A stretch of DNA of 64,000 bases from a candidate division WWE3 bacterium. Lineage in GTDB: Bacteria; Patescibacteriota; WWE3; UBA101185; UBA10185. A program made the position numbers and the translations under genes. The notes beneath the pieces are model-generated. The model was not told the origin of the DNA, did not search any database, and worked only from the letters and a program-made list of their open reading frames with translations. How positions within the stretch are numbered: the first letter of the stretch is position 1; every line of letters begins with the position of its first letter. The stretch lies in the NCBI GenBank assembly GCA_014729135.1, contig WJKK01000001.1:455599-519598 (forward strand), given 5' to 3'. Below are positions 1,869 through 56,018 of this stretch, one piece after another.

Positions 1869-2894
1869 ATGCACCGGATGACATTTTTTAGCATAGTAAT
1901 TCCCGTTAGAACCATTAACGACTACATAAAAGAAAACATTACCCATCTTAAAAAACTTGATTATCCTTCATTTGAAGTTCTAATAATAACCGATAAAAAA
2001 GAGGATCCTCCAACAAACGACAAACGTTTTAAATTCATCTCAAGTGGTCCTGTAGGTCCCGGTGAAAAAAGAAATCTTGGGGTAAAAAAGGCTCTAGGAA
2101 GTGTTATAGCTTTTCTTGATGATGATGCTTACCCTAAATCCAATTGGCTAAGGGAAGCTGAGCGAATATTTCAGGCAAATCCTACGCTTTATGCCCTGGG
2201 AGCTCCCGCAATTACACCAAAAGATTGTCCGTTAAGAGAGCGCATGTCCGGTCGAATTTATGAGTCTTATTTAACAGGGGGTAATACAACTTATCGTTAT
2301 TTACCTCAACAACAAAGAAAAGTTAGTGACTACCCAACCGTAAATCTCTTTGTAAAAAAAGAAGCCTTTGAAAAAGTCGGTGGTTTTCCTATAGAGTTTT
2401 GGCCCGGTGAAGATACTAAGCTTTGTCTTGATCTTGTGAAACTTCATGGGGCACCTTTCTTGTATGATCCTGCTCCCATTGTTTATCATCATAGGCGCGA
2501 TGTGTTTTTAAAGCATTTAAAGCAAGTTTCTCGATATGGTCAGCATAGAGGACAGTTTGCTCGCATATTTCCTGAAACTTCCAGATTGCCGTTTTATTTT
2601 GTGCCCTCGCTTTTTATTTTAGGGCTGTTTTTCGGGCCTTTAACCTTTTTACTTCATCCAATTTTTAAATTCATTTATTTTTCGGTGGTTTTTATATATT
2701 TGGGTTTACTGCTCTTGGAATCTTTGAAAGTAGGCTTAATGGAGAAAGGTTTGAAAGCCTTTTTTTACATGGCTGTGGGAATTTTTCTAACGCACGTTGT
2801 TTATGGATGGAATTTTATTTGGGGTTATTTAAAGAAGCCTTCACTTAAGCTTAGATCAGTTGACTTAAAAACCGGAAATTATGTCGGCGGTTAG
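1869..2894 (+). CDS. GT2 glycosyltransferase with a C-terminal multi-TM domain
   Basis: 'FFSIVIPVRTINDYIKENITHL...EVLIITD' and 'IAFLDDDAYP' (DxD), followed by 3-4 predicted TM helices at the C-terminus. Confidence 0.8.
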   Translation: MHRMTFFSIVIPVRTINDYIKENITHLKKLDYPSFEVLIITDKKEDPPTNDKRFKFISSGPVGPGEKRNLGVKKALGSVIAFLDDDAYPKSNWLREAERIFQANPTLYALGAPAITPKDCPLRERMSGRIYESYLTGGNTTYRYLPQQQRKVSDYPTVNLFVKKEAFEKVGGFPIEFWPGEDTKLCLDLVKLHGAPFLYDPAPIVYHHRRDVFLKHLKQVSRYGQHRGQFARIFPETSRLPFYFVPSLFILGLFFGPLTFLLHPIFKFIYFSVVFIYLGLLLLESLKVGLMEKGLKAFFYMAVGIFLTHVVYGWNFIWGYLKKPSLKLRSVDLKTGNYVGG

Positions 2895-2942
2895 GTAATA
2901 CTGGTACTCGTTCTGAAAAATTAAAGTGGTAGAATAATTTGT

Positions 2943-4535
2943 ATGAAAGTTGCCATAGCCTATCCCCCAATAGAAACCAACAAGGGAGTCCCTCTACTAT
3001 CGCAAAACCGCCAGTTTCAATACTTTAATACACCCACCTACATCTATCCCATGGTTCCGGCATATGCAGCTTCCTTGGCACAAAAGCGTGGTCATGAAGT
3101 CATTTGGATGGATGGGATAGCTTCAGAGCAAACTTATGCTCAATGGCTAGAGCAGCTGGATCAAGAAAGTCCCGATGTTTTAGTTATTGAATCTAAGGCC
3201 CCTGTTATTCGAAAGCATTGGGAAATCATCAAAGAAGTTAAGCAAAAGCATCCCAAGATGATAACGATTTTGGTGGGCGATCATGTTACCTATGATCCTA
3301 AAGAGAGCATGGAAAATAGTGTTGTAGATATGATTATTAGAGGAGGGGATTTTGATTTTGTTTTGGCGGATTTATTGGATGCTATTTCTAGTCAAAATAA
3401 AGAGGCAAAGATCCCGGGAGGAGTATGGCTTCGAAAAGACAAATCATTTTTAGAAATTCCCAAGGAGCAAGGCAACTATGACGGCGAATTTTGGATTTCC
3501 GGGCCAATGGAAATGCACCACAACCTTGATAGTTTACCTTTTATTGATCGCGATCTAACTCAATGGAAGCTTTATGCCTATGAAAACGGTAATTTTAAGT
3601 ACAAACCGGGAACTTATGTTTATTCAGGACGTGATTGCTGGTGGGGAAAGTGCACTTTTTGTATTTGGAATCACAGCCTGTTTCCTCAAGGAACTTATCG
3701 GCACTTTTCTCCTCATCGCCTCTTTGATGAAGTTAAGCACCTGGTAGATAACTACAGAGTTCGCGAAATTTTCGATGATGCTGGCACTATGTTTGTGGGA
3801 GAGGATCTTAAGACCTTTTGCCGCCTGCTGATAGATTCCGGTTATAACAAAAAAGTGGTTTACAGCTGTAACATGCGTCTTAAAGCGCTGGACCAAGAGA
3901 CTTATGATCTAATGGGGGACGCAAACTTCCGCTATATTTTGTACGGTTTTGAATCAGGAAATCAGGAGACTTTGGATCGTATTGATAAGGGTCTGCAGGT
4001 AGAGGAAATTGAACAGGGTCTTCGAATGGCTAAAAATGCAGGTTTAGAGCCCCACATTACTATTATGGTAGGGTATCCGTGGGAAACGGAGGAGATGGCC
4101 CGTAACACTATTAATCTGGCTAAGGAGATGTTTAAAAAAGGTCTTGTAGACACAATGCAGGCAACAATCACGGTTCCTTATCCGGGAACTCCTTTGTACA
4201 AGGAGTGTGTGGAAAAGGATCTTTTGTTGGTGGATCCAAAGGATTATGAGAAGTTTGACATGCGGGGTCCTGTTATGAAGGTGCCTTTTGACGAGTCAAA
4301 GCTGCATGATTTAACGCAGGAGCTTTATACGGTTTTTATGACGCCAAAGTTTATTTTGCGAAAGGTTATGTCGATTCGTTCTTGGGATGATATTGCGTTT
4401 TTTATTATGGCAGGGCGAAAGTTAATGGGTCATTTGTTGGATTTTGATCGCAGCCAGGAAGAGGCTGTTAAAGATCACGCCGGTTTATGGAAAAAGGGCC
4501 TACGAAAGCTAATGGGGAAAAAGCAAAAAGCTTAA
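2943..4535 (+). CDS. B12-binding-domain radical SAM protein
   Basis: N-terminal Rossmann-like B12-binding-type region, then a radical-SAM cysteine triad 'DCWWGKCTFC' (Cx4Cx2C). The ~530 aa size matches this family. Confidence 0.8.
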   Translation: MKVAIAYPPIETNKGVPLLSQNRQFQYFNTPTYIYPMVPAYAASLAQKRGHEVIWMDGIASEQTYAQWLEQLDQESPDVLVIESKAPVIRKHWEIIKEVKQKHPKMITILVGDHVTYDPKESMENSVVDMIIRGGDFDFVLADLLDAISSQNKEAKIPGGVWLRKDKSFLEIPKEQGNYDGEFWISGPMEMHHNLDSLPFIDRDLTQWKLYAYENGNFKYKPGTYVYSGRDCWWGKCTFCIWNHSLFPQGTYRHFSPHRLFDEVKHLVDNYRVREIFDDAGTMFVGEDLKTFCRLLIDSGYNKKVVYSCNMRLKALDQETYDLMGDANFRYILYGFESGNQETLDRIDKGLQVEEIEQGLRMAKNAGLEPHITIMVGYPWETEEMARNTINLAKEMFKKGLVDTMQATITVPYPGTPLYKECVEKDLLLVDPKDYEKFDMRGPVMKVPFDESKLHDLTQELYTVFMTPKFILRKVMSIRSWDDIAFFIMAGRKLMGHLLDFDRSQEEAVKDHAGLWKKGLRKLMGKKQKA

Positions 4536-4541
4536 TATTTT

Positions 4542-5036
4542 GTGTTTTTAAATATGTCTTACCTTCTTTTTACTGAAATCCTTCACTTTTTGGGAGCTTT
4601 GGCTTTATTTTTACTCTTTCTCCGTTTTTACAAGTGGTATATAGCAGGATTTTCCTTTCTATTTGGTTTTCTAATAGATGTAGATCATCTTTTTGATTAC
4701 TTTTATTTTATGAAATTTTTTAATAGGGGCTTTAACTTACGGGATTTTCTTTCAGCACAGTCTGTTACAACCGGAAAAATTTTTATTCCTTTTCATGGAT
4801 GGGAATGGGTTGTCCTACTGCTTCTCTTAGCATTGCTTTTTAGGGCTCTTCTTAACAGTGGAACTTTAAAAAAGGACTTTTGGAAAATTTTGGCTCAGAT
4901 TCTTTTTGTTGCAGGTACTTCTTTATTTACACATATTTTAACGGATTACTTTACTAACGAGGTGGGTTTTGGGGCCTATTCTTTCTTTTGGCGTTGGAGC
5001 AATGGTTTCTATACATCTTTAATCTGTGGAAAGTAA
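4542..5036 (+). CDS. small polytopic membrane protein (possibly DUF457/YdjM-like membrane metal-dependent hydrolase)
   Basis: Four hydrophobic segments and a 'FLIDVDHLFDYF' Asp/His motif. The family assignment is tentative. Confidence 0.45.
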   Translation: MFLNMSYLLFTEILHFLGALALFLLFLRFYKWYIAGFSFLFGFLIDVDHLFDYFYFMKFFNRGFNLRDFLSAQSVTTGKIFIPFHGWEWVVLLLLLALLFRALLNSGTLKKDFWKILAQILFVAGTSLFTHILTDYFTNEVGFGAYSFFWRWSNGFYTSLICGK

Positions 5037-19189: not shown

Positions 19190-20149
19190 ATGGATTCGAT
19201 AAGTGTTGTAATACCTGTTTATAATTCTGCTAGCACCCTAAAACGTACTTTGGGTTGTTTGCTTGATGCATCCCGTTTTATAGACGAGGTTTACATAGTA
19301 GATGATGCTTCTAATGATGATTCAGTAGAAATTGTTAAACAGTTTATCGAGAACCTTTCTTCCAAAATGCGAACTAAGTTTAATTTTATAACCCACGGTA
19401 AAAACCTTGGTTTGGCAGGGACCTACAATGATGGTTTAAGGAGATGTAAGGGGGATATCATTATTACCATTCATTCTGATATTATTTTTGGCTCTGAGGA
19501 AATACCCAAGCTTTTGAAACCTTTTAGCAGTGCTGATGTTGTTGCTTCCTGTCATTGTGTTAAACATCCTCTTAAAACTTGGAAAACTTACACCTTCTGG
19601 CAGAAATGCTTATTTTCACGCCTTTTGGGAAGAACTTCCTGTGGTTTAGATGGGAAATTTGATGCCTACCGTAGAAAGGCCCTGGAGCAGGTTGGTTATT
19701 TTGACGACAACCATTTTTATAGAGCAGGGGAGGATGGTGATTTACGTGAGAAGCTCTCTAGAATTGGAAAAATCGAAAAATCAGGAGCTGTCATAGTTCA
19801 TATTCATAATCAGAGCTCTAATTTTTCCTTGGAGGATTATATTTACAAACATGCTCAGTATGCAGAGGCCTTTGGTGTTTTATTAAGAAGACATGGAATA
19901 ACTAATTTCCCACGTTTTATTAGGACTCATTTTAGAGAGTTGATTTTTATTGCCTTATTAGTACCTTTTATAAGAATATTTGGAGCGTTTATTGCCTTGT
20001 CCTTTGCTTTTTTCTATACCAAAGCTGTTTTTATCTCCGAATTTCCGGATAGACGTTTGTTTTATCTTCCTTTAGTAAATTTGTTTCTTTTACCCATTTC
20101 CTTTATTTTTAGTCTAAAGGGATTTATACATGGTCAACAAACAGTTTGA
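19190..20149 (+). CDS. GT2 glycosyltransferase (module B)
   Basis: 'ISVVIPVYNSASTLKRTL' and 'CHCVKHPLKTWKTYTFWQKCLFSRLLGRTSCGLDGKFD'. Confidence 0.75.
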   Translation: MDSISVVIPVYNSASTLKRTLGCLLDASRFIDEVYIVDDASNDDSVEIVKQFIENLSSKMRTKFNFITHGKNLGLAGTYNDGLRRCKGDIIITIHSDIIFGSEEIPKLLKPFSSADVVASCHCVKHPLKTWKTYTFWQKCLFSRLLGRTSCGLDGKFDAYRRKALEQVGYFDDNHFYRAGEDGDLREKLSRIGKIEKSGAVIVHIHNQSSNFSLEDYIYKHAQYAEAFGVLLRRHGITNFPRFIRTHFRELIFIALLVPFIRIFGAFIALSFAFFYTKAVFISEFPDRRLFYLPLVNLFLLPISFIFSLKGFIHGQQTV

Positions 20150-20774
20150 AGCAGAAAAGTACGATGGGGTTTTTAATCCTATCGTGTTCTCAGAGGTTTC
20201 CCCGGATTCAAAAATCCTGGATGTTGGGTGTTGGAAAGGTGGCTTGGGTAAGGCTCTTATAAAGAAGAAGTCTTGTGTGGTAGATGGTGTGGATCTTAAC
20301 CCTGAGGCTTTAGAGGTAGCTTCTCAACGGGGTTATAGAGAGGTTTATGATTTTGATTTGAATCAGGGGAATCTGGACAAGCTTCCTTTAGAAGAGACTT
20401 ATGATTATATAGTCTTTGCAGATGTTTTGGAGCATTTGATAAATCCGGCTGAGGTTTTAGAAGCTTTTGCTCCCTTTCTTTCTAAGGAGGGTAGAATAAT
20501 AATTTCGATTCCAAATATTGCTTTTATTAAACAAAGATGGGACTTGCTTTGGGGTAAATTTGAGTATAACCCTTCCGGTGGGATAATGGATGAGAAACAC
20601 CTCCGATTTTATACTTATTCCAGCTTTAAGGATTTGGTAAATAATGCCGGTTTTAGAGTGAAAAAAAGCTATGGTTATTCCTTGGTTAAACCACGATTCA
20701 AATTCCTGAAACCCTTGAGTAAATTGTTTCCCTCACTTTTTGCCCTACAGTTCATTTTTGTTTTAGAGAGTTAG
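20130..20774 (+). CDS. class I SAM-dependent methyltransferase
   Basis: 'ILDVGCWKGGLGKAL' and 'YIVFADVLEHL'. Confidence 0.75.
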   Translation: MVNKQFEAEKYDGVFNPIVFSEVSPDSKILDVGCWKGGLGKALIKKKSCVVDGVDLNPEALEVASQRGYREVYDFDLNQGNLDKLPLEETYDYIVFADVLEHLINPAEVLEAFAPFLSKEGRIIISIPNIAFIKQRWDLLWGKFEYNPSGGIMDEKHLRFYTYSSFKDLVNNAGFRVKKSYGYSLVKPRFKFLKPLSKLFPSLFALQFIFVLES

Positions 20775-20861
20775 CATCTTTATTAGGGTATATTTACCTG
20801 TTATACTCTGCTTGTTTTTAAGATATTGAAAATCTAAGGAGATGGAAGGAGGGTGAGTGAG

Positions 20862-21662
20862 ATGGATAAGCGAGAAATTGGAGTTACGAGTATGGCGTTT
20901 TTCCCCTGGGTTTTACTACCGGGGGGACTGTTACTGGTAAATAGGTGGTCGCGAAAAGCCGGCTATGATTTTTTGCAGCCGGTTCCCTCTCGCGGGATTT
21001 TTCCATTTGTATTGCGAAGGATCCCCGCGGATCGAATTCCCCACACCCAGGGTTCGTGGCACCCGCGTCCGGGCCGTCCTCTTATGGCAGTTGCGCGGCA
21101 GTTTGGGTTGGTGGGGGACGAGTGGCCCTTGCCCGAAGATTGGATAGTCTTTGCCTCCGCGCGGCTGGTTGAGTGTCGCCTAAAACTTTTTCAGAGGAAC
21201 TTTCCGGATGTTCGTCGTGTAGGCCACAGCTGGGGAGACCCCCTTTTGGAGGTGAATCCCGACCTATTGACTTCCGCAGGGGAGCAGCCTGCTCTCGGTG
21301 ATCTTCTGGACTATCCGGGAGATCTAGTGATTGATCTCTGGCATGTTCGAAGAGAAGGTTGGCAGGGACAAGCTCCCTTGACCTCCGAACCCGTGGAGTT
21401 TTTTCAACAACTCCTATTTTCGGGTAAAGTAGTCCTTGTCCATTTTCAACCAGCGCGAGATGGTGCAGAGCTGGGAAGGTTTCTCCGGGGGGAACCAACG
21501 GTTTTGGATGAATTACTAGCTCTCCTACGTTTGTACCCGCGGATTCCTCTAGTGGTGGAGCTGGCTCCGCCCTCCACTGCGCCTGCCTCCTGGATGTTCC
21601 CCAGGTCGGCAATTCAGGGCCTGATTCAGGTCCGTCAGCGCATAGAAGAGGTCCTAACCTAG
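20862..21662 (+). CDS. hypothetical protein encoded on a GC-rich island (no recognisable domain)
   Basis: 266-269 aa ORF (GTG 20853 or ATG 20862), preceded by GGAGATGGAAGGAGGG. Local GC is ~58-62% against ~40% flanks. Pro/Arg/Ala/Gly-rich codon usage. A strong terminator follows. Confidence 0.55.
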   Translation: MDKREIGVTSMAFFPWVLLPGGLLLVNRWSRKAGYDFLQPVPSRGIFPFVLRRIPADRIPHTQGSWHPRPGRPLMAVARQFGLVGDEWPLPEDWIVFASARLVECRLKLFQRNFPDVRRVGHSWGDPLLEVNPDLLTSAGEQPALGDLLDYPGDLVIDLWHVRREGWQGQAPLTSEPVEFFQQLLFSGKVVLVHFQPARDGAELGRFLRGEPTVLDELLALLRLYPRIPLVVELAPPSTAPASWMFPRSAIQGLIQVRQRIEEVLT

Positions 21663-21669
21663 ATTAACC

Positions 21670-21718
21670 CGGATCTCGGGAGACAGCGTAACAGCTCCCG
21701 AGATCCTGCTTTTTGCTA
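21670..21718 (+). terminator. rho-independent terminator: GGATCTCGGGAG-(12-nt loop)-CTCCCGAGATCC + TGCTTTTTGC
   Basis: Perfect 12-bp inverted repeat followed by a T-run, 8 nt after the stop of the GC-rich ORF. Confidence 0.65.
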
Positions 21719-21729
21719 AAATACCCCTA

Positions 21730-23220
21730 ATGAGAGCCATCCTAAAAAAACACCCCTTCCTTACAATCGTAATCTCAGCCACACTTGTATACTTTTTCTC
21801 CTGGTTTTTTGCATGGAAAATTGGCGTTAACGACTTACCTATTCAATCCGAAGACACTTTACCCGCCATTTTTATGCCCGTTACAATCCTAAAAGAAGGC
21901 ACAATTTACCTTGACTCCTATTACGACATGCTTCTTTCGCGCTATCCTCACCCTGATGATAAGAGTTATGAAAAGGGGTTAGTTCCTTTTTATTTGCGGG
22001 AAGTGATTTCAGATTCACGGAATGACACACACTACGTCTCTGCATTTACTATAATAACGCCTCTGCTGGCTTTGCCGGTTTATTTTCTTCCGGTTCTTTT
22101 GGGAGTTTCTATAAATTGGACAAACTTGATTGTCCTTTCTCATTTAGCAGCTTCCTTCATTGTTGCTTTATCCGGTGGGTTTCTCTATTTGCTTTTAAGG
22201 AAGCACTTTTTTTCTCAAGATTCCGGCAAAACCTTTTTTAAACAAAAATCTCTATTGCTTACTGCAATTTATTTATTTGCAACCATAAATTTTGCGCACA
22301 TTTCTCAAGCTCTTTGGCAACACGGGACAGTTCAACTTTTTACGATTTTGGCTCTTTGGGCAATTTACGAAAAACGCTACCCTCTCACCGGACTCTTTTT
22401 TGGCTTAATGATCCTTTCTCGCCCCACCTCCGCCATCCCTGTCACCCTTCTTGGTTTAGCAGCCCTGACGAATTTGTTCAATACTTCTCCCTCTTCACAG
22501 GTTGAAGCCTCAGAAAGGAAAACTGAGAACACCTCTTTTAAGCGAACTTTTGCAGACCGCTATTGCGGTCGAAACGTGAGTCTAAAAGATGGTGTTCTCA
22601 GTTTAATTGCGCTTTCTTTAGGTTTCTTGCCTACCTTAATCTTCTTCCTCTGGTACAACAAAACCTACTACGGCAACATCTCCAATCAAGGCTACTCCAA
22701 CCAAATCTTCACCGAATGGAAAGGACGCTTCCCTGAAGGCTTCCTAGGCCTTTGGATCTCCCCATCAAAAGGAATCCTAATTTACTCACCAATCTTTATC
22801 TTTTCTCTTGCCGGCCTCTATTTAGCCGTCAAAAACCGGAAACAAAACTTAAACTGCATAATCCTTGGCTTAATCGTCTTAATTCACACACTTGTCCTTG
22901 GAAAATGGAAGCACTGGTATGGGGGATGGTCCTTTGGCTATCGCATGGCCTCCGATGTAATTCCCTTTTTAATCTTACTAATGGTCCCCTTTATAAAATC
23001 CTCCCATTTTCAAAAAGCAAAAAACTTATTTTTCATACTTTTTGGCCTTTCAATTTTTGTCCAATTCTTTGGAATAGTCTTTTACGATGGAACTTGGCAT
23101 TCTGCTTATGATCTGGGATATGAAAACACCTCTTGGCTTTGGTCCTTAAAAAATAGCGAACTAATCTTCAACATTCGTAGAGTACTTGTAAAAACAGGCT
23201 TACGCGCCACACCTTTTTAG
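21730..23220 (+). CDS. polytopic membrane protein (496 aa; possible GT-C/mannosyltransferase-like)
   Basis: About 12 predicted TM helices with a large loop. No soluble domain. Confidence 0.55.
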   Translation: MRAILKKHPFLTIVISATLVYFFSWFFAWKIGVNDLPIQSEDTLPAIFMPVTILKEGTIYLDSYYDMLLSRYPHPDDKSYEKGLVPFYLREVISDSRNDTHYVSAFTIITPLLALPVYFLPVLLGVSINWTNLIVLSHLAASFIVALSGGFLYLLLRKHFFSQDSGKTFFKQKSLLLTAIYLFATINFAHISQALWQHGTVQLFTILALWAIYEKRYPLTGLFFGLMILSRPTSAIPVTLLGLAALTNLFNTSPSSQVEASERKTENTSFKRTFADRYCGRNVSLKDGVLSLIALSLGFLPTLIFFLWYNKTYYGNISNQGYSNQIFTEWKGRFPEGFLGLWISPSKGILIYSPIFIFSLAGLYLAVKNRKQNLNCIILGLIVLIHTLVLGKWKHWYGGWSFGYRMASDVIPFLILLMVPFIKSSHFQKAKNLFFILFGLSIFVQFFGIVFYDGTWHSAYDLGYENTSWLWSLKNSELIFNIRRVLVKTGLRATPF

Positions 23221-24167: not shown

Positions 24168-24377
24168 ATTTAGTCAGCCTGCTTTTGTGTTTTTTGGTTT
24201 GGCGCTTTTCTTTAATGTTGATTCTAAAGTCTTAAACCACATTCTATCCTAACGGGAGTTTCTGTTGCCACTGCTTCTCCCTTCATTGGAGTCTCTTTTA
24301 CGTCCTTACCCCAAAAATTCCAGTTTTACTGGAAAATACCTCCTTTAAAACCCTCTAATTTTTGTTAAAATATATTT

Positions 24378-55939: not shown

Positions 55940-56018
55940 TAGGAATTGTATTGTTTTAACAACAGCAATAAATCACATTAACAAATAAAACCCGAAAATA
56001 ATGTGCTAAAATCTGCAT

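Follow-up and report, generated by a model that had tools for sequence, protein, structure and literature searches.

A single gene in an AT-rich surface-glycan locus of a candidate division WWE3 bacterium (gene X hereafter) is strikingly rich in G and C, which raises the question whether it was recently imported, as a first-pass annotation of this DNA had proposed, or whether its odd composition has another source. In the window, i.e. the whole 64-kb stretch of DNA analysed here, the GC content of 800-nt intervals averages 0.400 (sd 0.029) and peaks at 0.559 at position 20901; a second peak does not occur in the 64 kb, since all other intervals stay at or below 0.47. Maximum-likelihood change points at 20903 and 21709 delimit a block with a GC content of 0.56, which starts about 40 nt into the open reading frame (ORF), ends with a hairpin, and is the only strong GC island of the window (0.55–0.58 versus 0.40, 5.5 sd). 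In 200-nt intervals GC rises from 0.34–0.36 (20600–20900) to 0.51–0.585 (20900–21700) and returns to 0.40 beyond. The sharp borders and the contrast in composition and codon usage that the first-pass annotation had described were thus borne out. Its estimate of about 60% GC was right insofar as the segment is strongly GC-rich, but the ORF itself has a GC content of 0.55 (0.67, 0.44, and 0.53 at the three codon positions). The 43 other long ORFs of the window all lie within 0.33–0.43, and the promoter and leader region of gene X (20775–20845) is at 0.30.

Recent acquisition from a donor of roughly 55–60% GC outside the lineage, with the gene not yet ameliorated, would fit these sharp borders as well as the GC content, GC3, codon usage, and Arg/Lys ratio, all of which resemble a mid- to high-GC genome. 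The tetranucleotide comparison suggested in the first-pass annotation gave a divided answer. In raw tetranucleotide distance the block is an outlier (z 7.7), which would favor such an import, but its dinucleotide signature normalized for base composition is host-like (delta* 0.072 versus 0.089 ± 0.028 in the other 800-nt intervals, z = −0.6), and 215 of 308 such intervals deviate more than the block does. The promoter and leader, moreover, are AT-rich like host intergenic DNA, which also speaks against a foreign segment.

Gene X occupies positions 20862–21662 on the plus strand. Its ATG at 20862, which is also the start chosen by NCBI (266 aa), lies 9 nt after a GGAGG (20848–20852), whereas a GTG at 20853 is the less likely start. 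The segment therefore holds one ORF with its own Shine-Dalgarno (SD) site, as had been noted. The encoded protein had been described as rich in Pro, Arg, Gly, and Ala; this is true for Pro (10.2% versus 4.2%) and Arg (9.4% versus 4.6%) and slightly so for Gly, but not for Ala (6.4% versus 6.3%), and Lys is strongly depleted (1.5% versus 7.3%). An antisense ORF of 176 aa (21082–21612, minus strand) was rejected as a gene. We interpret it as a shadow cast by the GC-rich sense frame, in favor of which both the conservation across the family and the confident fold speak; a scarcity of stop codons is expected to leave antisense frames open. GC islands in AT-rich genomes are often RNA genes, and one could suppose that the segment is a GC-rich structured RNA in which the ORF arose by chance, given that both strands are open and that the whole segment folds with a z of −1.9. 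However, a frame of 810 nt would stay open by chance at 55% GC with a calculated probability of about 2e-5, the fold z of the gene is not significant with a dinucleotide-preserving shuffle, and the segment lacks tRNAs as well as credible Rfam matches up to E = 10. With 62 protein homologs sharing conserved catalytic-type residues and a structural model at pLDDT 95, protein-level conservation effectively refutes this reading, which retains a negligible probability.

A word-indexed protein search matched gene X protein only to itself, but the ORFan reading that this suggested was overturned by an exhaustive HMMER search, which recovered 62 full-length homologs. None among about 15 billion proteins is closer than 38% identity; the 90% cluster of the protein has a single member, and near-identical copies were not found in different genomes. 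The family is fast-evolving and previously unannotated, and we found no literature specific to it or its context. The protein alone matches no NCBIfam model and no Pfam model even at E = 10, AP_endonuc_2 (PF01261) included, so that the statement that it has no recognizable domain holds, but only for single-sequence HMM libraries. With homologs included, the fold can be recognized. AlphaFold with the family alignment returned a model with a pLDDT of 95.2 and a pTM of 0.91 (the single-sequence model, at pLDDT 43, was unusable), and the best Foldseek matches of this model are the L-xylulose-5-phosphate 3-epimerase UlaE and D-tagatose/allulose 3-epimerases (E 2e-6). PF01261 weakly matches 7 of the 63 family members (best E 2e-4), and sequence-profile matches to the PDB are weak as well (E 0.05–0.7). 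The model is a (beta/alpha)8 barrel superposable on solved xylose-isomerase-like members, with a Glu-Asp-His-Glu/DTxH site at the strand C-termini. Based on this model, the product can be assigned with confidence to the xylose-isomerase-like TIM-barrel superfamily as a predicted cytoplasmic enzyme, a fold assignment that replaces the earlier label of unknown function.

Within the family D158 and E233 are invariant and E130, H161, and H194 are conserved at 95–98%; the conserved residues stand at or just after the model strands 128–131, 154–158, 190–195, and 230–232. Position 63, which is E in 92% of the family, is Q in the window copy. H194 and E233 align with the HVH and IEN motifs of MJ1311, and the family motif LVxDTxHxRR aligns with IDTAH of an endonuclease-IV-type AP endonuclease (PDB 6khy). 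Two enzyme groups therefore offer themselves for comparison. Gene X protein resembles the ketose and sugar-phosphate 3-epimerases (D-tagatose/D-allulose 3-epimerases and UlaE) in size (~260–290 aa), in its sugar-metabolism context, and in the spacing of E130, D158, H194, and E233, which we take to be like that of the epimerase metal tetrad. It differs from them in that identity is only 10–14% (some 200 of the 266 residues align, at a TM of about 0.5), in a set of additional conserved residues that are atypical there (Q39, E63, W66, D93, H122, H161, R163, and E203), and in its location in glycan-biosynthesis loci instead of catabolic operons. Two conserved Glu residues (E130 and E233) are candidates for the catalytic pair of such epimerases, but any epimerase activity is putative, and we do not assign gene X to this group. 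With endonuclease IV and AP endonuclease family 2 it has in common the motif that aligns with the metal-binding (I/L)DT(A/C)H, as well as His and Glu on successive strands. Of the nine ligands of the trinuclear Zn site, however, only the E/DTxH/H/E part aligns, no D-x-H pair follows H194 in the conserved columns, the genes around it serve glycan synthesis and not DNA repair, and the structural scores are below those of the epimerases.

Gene X would be transcribed as a monocistronic unit, in which an extended −10 promoter is followed by a leader of some 50 nt with a strong SD, then by the 266-aa ORF and an intrinsic terminator. The promoter-like element TGTTATACT (20799–20807, plus strand) matches the extended −10 consensus and is located 63 nt 5' of the ATG, from which the ~50-nt leader is predicted; TGnTAnnnT recurs at −58 to −66 in five homolog loci (L039, L041, L004, L044, and L048). 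The leader carries the motif TTGAAAATCTAA (20826–20837, plus strand), which has no match in Rfam; L039 and L041 have an identical 12-mer (TTGAMAATCTAA) at −35 to −40. The SD site AAGGAGGG (20846–20853, plus strand) leaves a spacer of 9 nt between GGAGG and ATG. A strong SD is present in all 14 family loci examined, while just 6 of the window's 45 ORFs are preceded by any SD-like motif.

An intrinsic-terminator-like hairpin follows the stop codon (21671–21714 with its U-tract, plus strand). Its arms (21671–21682 and 21695–21706) form 12 perfect pairs around a 12-nt loop and are followed by UGCUUUUUGC, such that the transcript would continue from the hairpin (21671–21706) with UGC and then UUUUU (21710–21714). 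The perfect 12-bp stem described earlier is therefore real. The hairpin folds with −24 kcal/mol (z −4.4), and the 64 kb contain just four other perfect hairpins of at least 9 bp. A simple terminator scanner missed it because of the 12-nt loop and the interrupted U-tract (UGCUUUUU), but a GC-rich hairpin with a U-tract after a stop codon is the arrangement of a rho-independent terminator, and termination at this site is predicted. About 14 of 16 family loci have a comparable GC-rich hairpin after the stop codon, usually with a U-tract, although its sequence is not conserved. Inspection of 21660–21730 also led us to reject an integron gene cassette. The attC sites of such cassettes are imperfect palindromes with RYYYAAC and GTTRRRY cores after the ORF; here the stem is perfect and without extrahelical bases, no GTTRRRY follows, and the upstream GATTAAC is unlike RYYYAAC.

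The glycan locus described in the first-pass annotation was confirmed, as gene X is surrounded by GT2, methyltransferase, GT-C-like, and GT1 genes. Upstream lies a class I SAM methyltransferase (20130–20774, plus strand) with a host-like GC content of 0.38; the conserved downstream partner, MEM (21730–23220, plus strand), encodes a 496-aa polytopic GT-C-like membrane protein. The window copy of MEM has no Pfam or PDB sequence match, but PMT_2 is detected in 6 of 22 orthologs (best E 4.8e-11), and E41-D42 in the first loop are invariant. An extended −10 motif, TGCTAAAAT (21714–21722, plus strand), is situated 7 nt 5' of the MEM ATG and overlaps with the U-tract of the terminator; from its sequence it is likely the promoter of a leaderless MEM mRNA. 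The arrangement of TGnTAnAAT, 6–7 nt, and a start codon is kept before the downstream gene in six other loci (L039, L041, L004, L024, L044, and L048), and 6 of the 12 extended −10 motifs in the window stand 6–9 nt before a start codon.

In at least eight other independent WWE3/Patescibacteria assemblies from different samples and assemblers (L002, L004, L024, L037, L010, L039, L041, and L065), a homolog of gene X immediately precedes MEM. For this reason the locus is not an assembly chimera, in which a fragment of a GC-richer organism would have been mis-joined into the WWE3 contig. The compositional break alone could suggest such an artifact, but the block starts inside an ORF that is continuous with an AT-rich 5' end, SD, and promoter, and it ends at the terminator whose U-tract reaches into the −10 element of MEM; we give a chimera almost no credence.

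The syntenic homologs are deeply diverged (27–46% identity), and the contexts of the family vary (MEM, PGM/PMM, GT2, and rpoB). Members adjoin genes for GT2, UDP-glucose dehydrogenase, PGM/PMM plus NTP-transferase, NDP-sugar epimerases, PMT_2, and a flippase. The presence of gene X is patchy: it is found in about five of the eight closest loci and in a minority of the 38 + 48 MEM loci overall. In the slot between UDP-glucose dehydrogenase and the membrane gene, L001 carries a HEPN/nucleotidyltransferase (MNT) toxin-antitoxin pair and L002 carries gene X; the L047 copy adjoins a PIN gene. Gene X is accordingly an accessory gene in a variable slot and absent from most related loci. A search for its remnants in loci lacking it gave only noise, apart from a faint colinear signal at ~4400–4590 of L026. 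The neighbor-joining tree of the family is star-like, the MEM-adjacent copies are not monophyletic, and the pairwise identities of gene X and MEM correlate modestly (r 0.49), so that repeated lateral replacement at this slot is possible.

The composition of these relatives bears on the question of recent import. The comparison with related genomes proposed in the first-pass annotation showed that they do carry gene X, but that its composition is non-native there too. At every one of the 16 loci the family gene is richer in GC than its flanks (mean +0.111, sd 0.035), and its GC content tracks that of the host (slope 0.91, r 0.84, p 5e-5; hosts 0.31–0.57 GC). The neighboring genes, used as controls, show no such offset (MEM +0.002, GT1 +0.011, n = 33 each). 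Since the relatives are about 11 GC points above every sampled host, the odd composition is a trait of the gene family as a whole and no sign of a recent import. Gene X has a GC content of 0.552, compared to 0.398 for host coding DNA and 0.488 predicted if its amino acids were encoded with the codon usage of the host. About 60–70% of the GC excess stems from amino acid composition, in which Arg, Pro, Trp, Leu, and Gln are elevated and Lys, Asn, Tyr, and Ile reduced. What remains is synonymous, an excess at GC3 (0.528 versus 0.378 expected, z 4.3) that 10 of 12 other family loci likewise show.

The horizontal acquisition that the first-pass annotation had read from the GC anomaly thus conflicts with an offset shared by all 16 loci and with diverged syntenic homologs in at least eight assemblies. 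Like recent genomic islands, gene X has atypical GC, GC3, and codon usage and sharp boundaries, and it is missing in some close relatives, as an import would be. Unlike them, it combines a host-like normalized signature with syntenic relatives and a family-wide offset that scales with host GC. Signatures of mobility are lacking: the neighborhood contains no mobility genes and the segment no tRNA, direct or inverted repeats flanking gene X are at chance level only, and DNA searches of phages and plasmids yielded no match. No donor is visible, because no homolog is closer than 38% identity. Owing to the host-tracking offset of the family and the host-like signature, recent transfer from a GC-rich donor is unsupported, and we regard it as improbable.

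Another conceivable origin is a portable cassette that is frequently exchanged among Patescibacteria via the variable glycan-locus slot and kept GC-rich at every codon position by a force acting at the nucleotide level. Such a force might be GC-biased gene conversion resulting from frequent recombination, or selection for stable, nuclease-resistant GC-rich mRNA that would be expressible in any host. By analogy only, gene X recalls the morons of phages, which are autonomous promoter–gene–terminator units of deviant base composition: it has its own promoter-like element, SD, and terminator, a composition unlike its flanks, and a patchy distribution in an otherwise syntenic locus. It differs from them by its location outside a phage, its family-wide host-scaled composition, and its conserved pairing with MEM. 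The patchy presence, the toxin-antitoxin pair in the same slot and the PIN gene mentioned above, the varied contexts, and a star-like tree incongruent with context would all agree with portability, as would SD-led translation against a genomic background of few SD sites and many leaderless starts. A single nucleotide-level force would also be the more economical explanation for GC being raised at synonymous and non-synonymous sites alike. Furthermore, the mRNAs of the family are folded somewhat more stably than their synonymously shuffled versions (mean z −1.85 versus +0.07 in 42 control genes with a plain synonymous shuffle; −1.22, p 0.012, with a dinucleotide-preserving one). For the window gene itself, however, the dinucleotide-preserving z is −0.58 and not significant, and extra mRNA structure was not accepted as the cause of its GC excess. 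Frequent exchange is also at odds with the lack of near-identical copies across genomes (the 90% cluster has one member) and with the conserved X–MEM adjacency, and no integrase, repeats, or attC-like site was found at the locus. Finally, the slope of about 0.9 and the host-like dinucleotides imply long residence or exchange among compositionally similar hosts only. We therefore consider this scenario rather unlikely, although less so than a recent import.

The explanation that we consider probable as a whole is a native-behaving, self-contained gene for a sugar enzyme that is intrinsically GC-rich and was not recently transferred. Judging from the conserved E130/D158(+H161)/H194/E233 site, the enzyme would bind a divalent metal and could isomerize or epimerize a keto-sugar via an enediolate intermediate, with a sugar phosphate as the most likely substrate, as for UlaE. 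It may thereby supply an unusual sugar to the adjacent glycan route, which would lead from a sugar nucleotide via GT2 to a polyprenyl-phosphate sugar and on to the GT-C-like membrane transferase.

For composition-based calls of horizontal gene transfer (HGT) the family is a caution. It is a 5-sd outlier in every carrier genome, and yet its GC content tracks the host and its dinucleotides are those of the host; composition-based island callers would call gene X foreign everywhere. The synonymous GC excess is small but clean and conserved across hosts of 31–57% GC. If it were true, the portable cassette would give very AT-rich, reduced genomes a "false HGT signature" that is long-lived and specific to this family. 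Besides this, a family of "hypothetical proteins" outside all Pfam and NCBIfam models is now given a fold and a probable reaction class. The surfaces of Patescibacteria are thought to be important for their attachment lifestyle, and in the surface-glycan loci of WWE3 and other Patescibacteria the gene X family is a recurrent partner of the GT-C-like transferase.

The GC content of the window, on average 0.40 (sd 0.029 in 800-nt windows), has a single peak of 0.559 (+5.5 sd) at position 20901 and does not exceed 0.47 anywhere else. In 200-nt windows it rises from 0.34–0.36 to 0.51–0.585 across 20900–21700 and then returns to 0.40, and a three-segment likelihood fit places the breakpoints at 20903 and 21709. 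The sliding-window analysis thus confirms the GC-rich segment with a sharp compositional break on both sides that the first-pass annotation had described, although its figure of about 60% was slightly too high. The block coincides with one ORF on the forward strand (20853/20862–21662), here called gene X, whose GC content of 0.55 (0.67, 0.44, and 0.53 at the three codon positions) lies outside the range of the 43 other long ORFs (0.33–0.43). The public record starts X at the ATG at 20862 and lists the product, GF360_02415, as a 266-aa hypothetical protein from a candidate division WWE3 bacterium, encoded on a contig of 864 kb. By our calculation, an 810-nt open frame would arise by chance at this GC content with a probability of approximately 2e-5. 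An antisense ORF of 176 aa (21082–21612) was judged to be a shadow frame, and a structured-RNA gene in place of a protein is excluded by the clear protein-level conservation and the lack of an Rfam match.

The protein has no match in Pfam or NCBIfam, and a word-indexed search of 5.8 billion clusters retrieved only the protein itself. At the level of domain libraries the earlier statement that no domain is recognizable therefore holds, but a fold emerges once homologs are used. An exhaustive HMMER search of 1.84 billion representatives yielded 62 full-length homologs (230–285 aa, 25–38% identity, E-values down to 3e-21). In their alignment, D158 and E233 are invariant, E130, H161, and H194 are conserved at 95–98%, and Q39, E63, W66, D93, H122, R163, and E203 are further conserved residues; the window protein has all of these except at position 63, where it carries Q instead of the E found in 92% of the family. 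With this alignment AlphaFold2 produced a model of eight strands alternating with helices (pLDDT 95.2, pTM 0.91; pLDDT 43 without the alignment). The first Foldseek match in the PDB is the L-xylulose-5-phosphate 3-epimerase UlaE, followed by D-tagatose, D-allulose, and L-ribulose 3-epimerases (E-values 2e-6 to 1e-4, UlaE included). Support at the sequence level is weak but consistent: PF01261 matches 7 of 63 family members (best E-value 2e-4), and in the family profile the motif LVxDTxHxRR aligns to IDTAH of an endonuclease-IV-type AP endonuclease, and H194 and E233 to HVH and IEN of MJ1311. Active sites of TIM barrels lie at the C-terminal ends of the strands, and this is where the model places the conserved acidic and histidine residues of X (strands 128–131, 154–158, 190–195, and 230–232). 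A TIM-barrel fold is very probable. We therefore file X in the known xylose-isomerase-like TIM-barrel superfamily, of which it represents a new, divergent family that is placed in no particular enzyme family.

X is preceded by genes for a GT2 (17538), a methyltransferase (18520), a second GT2 (19190), and, immediately 5′, another methyltransferase (20130–20774). Directly 3′ lies the gene of a 496-aa polytopic membrane protein, MEM (21730–23220), followed by a GT2 (23241), a 77-aa ORF, and a GT1 (24729). MEM of the window has no Pfam match, but PMT_2 matches 6 of 22 orthologs (best E-value 4.8e-11) and E41-D42 are invariant, which makes "GT-C-like" a reasonable label; MEM represents a well-conserved, unannotated GT-C-like family in WWE3. 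Its orthologs also share a striking invariant block, W393-K-H-W-Y-G-G-W400 ... F402-G-Y-R-M406. Among 38 genome and 48 metagenome loci fetched with MEM as query, an X homolog lies directly 5′ of MEM in at least eight (L002, L004, L024, L037, L010, L039, L041, and L065) and in the metagenome twins L053, L056, and L084. Since this order recurs in independent assemblies, an assembly chimera is ruled out. X occurs in approximately five of the eight loci that share 60% MEM identity or more with the window, and in a minority of loci overall. The site 5′ of MEM is a variable slot: L002 has the order UDP-glucose dehydrogenase, X, MEM, and L001 carries a HEPN and minimal-nucleotidyltransferase toxin-antitoxin pair (2347–3035, minus strand) between the dehydrogenase and MEM. 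X is thus an accessory gene. The gap 5′ of MEM in L026 (~4400–4590) has weak colinear tblastn matches from several family proteins (E-values 0.07–0.3) and may hold a decayed X remnant. A PIN-domain gene adjoins the X copy of L047, and L043 has a bAvd/23S-rRNA-intervening-sequence-protein-like gene (2485–2874, minus strand) two genes from X.

Gene X has its own putative expression signals. A putative promoter, the extended −10-like element TGTTATACT (20799–20807), lies 63 nt 5′ of the ATG, and L039, L041, L004, L044, and L048 have a similar element at −58 to −66. The leader contains a 12-mer, TTGAAAATCTAA (TTGAMAATCTAA; 20826–20837), which has no Rfam match and is kept 35–40 nt 5′ of the ATG in the three closest X genes (that of the window, L039 ~473–484, and L041 ~887–898). 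The Shine–Dalgarno (SD) sequence noted earlier is present, with 9 nt from GGAGG (20848–20852) to the ATG, and all 14 family loci examined have a strong SD; across the window, an SD-like motif precedes only about 6 of the 45 ORFs. The terminator-like hairpin was likewise recovered: 12 perfect pairs (21671–21682/21695–21706), a 12-nt loop, and then UGCUUUUUGC, with a free energy of −24 kcal/mol (z −4.4). It is one of five perfect hairpins of at least 9 bp in the 64 kb and was missed by a simple terminator scan because of its long loop. Just 3′ of the stop codon, approximately 14 of the 16 family loci carry a GC-rich hairpin, mostly with a U-tract, and the hairpin sequences differ. In the window, an extended −10 element, TGCTAAAAT (21714–21722), begins with the final U of the tract and lies 7 nt 5′ of the MEM ATG; six other loci have TGnTAnAAT at this spacing from the next start codon. 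Six of the 12 TGnTAnAAT motifs in the window lie 6–9 nt 5′ of a start codon (among them 615–623, 2927–2935, 21714–21722, 24363–24371, and 56004–56012, often exactly TGCTAAAAT), and the motif is also found at the gene starts 31277 and 37301. Judged by these motifs and the few SD-like sites, much of the expression in this genome seems to run through leaderless mRNAs, and MEM probably has a leaderless transcript of its own. With its −10 element, leader, SD, and hairpin with U-tract, X appears to be a leadered, SD-dependent, self-terminated monocistron in a genome with mostly leaderless or SD-less starts.

The deviating composition had been taken as a sign of horizontal acquisition, and the raw tetranucleotide distance of the block is indeed an outlier (z 7.7). 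This value, however, arises because the GC content differs; in base-composition-normalized dinucleotides the block is host-like (δ* 0.072 versus 0.089 ± 0.028; 215 of 308 windows deviate more strongly). The promoter and leader (20775–20845, GC 0.30) resemble host intergenic DNA. Around X there are no mobility genes, tRNAs, or repeats and no phage or plasmid match, and inspection of the sequence revealed no attC-like site. Across 16 distinct loci, window included, X is richer in GC than the rest of its locus in every case (mean offset +0.111, sd 0.035, range +0.026 to +0.159), so that its syntenic homologs do not have native-like composition either. Control offsets are +0.002 ± 0.016 for MEM and +0.011 ± 0.018 for GT1 (n = 33 each). 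In a regression of X GC on host GC, genes from unrelated donors should show a slope near 0, and genes from related donors an offset of zero. The observed slope is 0.91 with an intercept of +0.148 (r 0.84, p 5e-5; hosts 0.31–0.57 GC), and X is therefore under the mutational regime of its host with an intrinsic surplus. The anomaly is a property of the X family rather than of this genome, and these results argue against recent acquisition. Of the proposed cassette, the anatomy and accessory status stand, whereas the recent foreign origin and the absence of a domain do not. Further GC-rich islands (at least 8 points over the locus median) lie just 3′ of GT1 in three WWE3 loci without X (L012 8601–9601, L013 8501–9701, and L029 11101–12201); their products are small, either hypothetical or membrane proteins, and have no relation to the X family.

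Amino-acid composition accounts for approximately 9 of the 15 GC points in the window: with host codon usage the X protein would have a GC content of 0.488, versus 0.398 for host coding sequence. Pro (10.2 versus 4.2%), Arg (9.4 versus 4.6%), and Trp (3.4 versus 1.3%) are enriched compared to the host, and Lys (1.5 versus 7.3%), Asn (1.1 versus 3.8%), and Tyr (1.1 versus 4.4%) depleted; the family overall has 7.2% Arg versus 4.7% Lys. The remainder is synonymous (GC3 0.528, expected 0.378; z 4.3 among host genes), with G or C ending 83 of 150 four-fold codons. Across 12 other loci, amino-acid composition contributes 0.069 to a mean excess of 0.102, and GC3 is above expectation in ten of them. 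Family mRNAs fold more stably than plain synonymous shuffles (mean z −1.85, p 4e-4), an effect not seen in control genes (z +0.07 ± 1.08, n = 42). With dinucleotides preserved, the family mean is −1.22 (p 0.012), carried by L004 (5193–5915, z approximately −6.2), L049 (−3.6), and L002 (−2.4). For the window gene this z is −0.58, and mRNA structure as the explanation of its synonymous excess is not borne out. The host-independent GC surplus, synonymous sites included, is the remaining curiosity.

X evolves much faster than its neighbors: in the same loci, pairwise identities are 27–46% for X versus 53–73% for MEM. The correlation between the two identities is only modest (r 0.49, p 0.02 uncorrected), though the two loci most alike in MEM are also those most alike in X, and the neighbor-joining tree of the family is star-like with MEM-adjacent copies ungrouped. 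These data are compatible both with vertical descent accompanied by rapid divergence and gene loss and with an occasional replacement of the cassette in the slot 5′ of MEM.

The genes around family members are consistent with sugar chemistry: X homologs adjoin a phosphogluco/mannomutase and a sugar-1-phosphate nucleotidyltransferase in L042 and L046, and GT2 and UDP-glucose dehydrogenase in L043–L045 and L047, and in L048 the homolog is part of a large glycan cluster that also encodes PMT_2, a flippase, and NDP-sugar epimerases. The most likely mechanism for X is that of a metal-dependent isomerase or epimerase, predicted to act on a keto-sugar or sugar phosphate. Substrate and pathway role can be proposed only tentatively: the product of X would supply an unusual sugar to the GT2 and GT-C-like glycan pathway.
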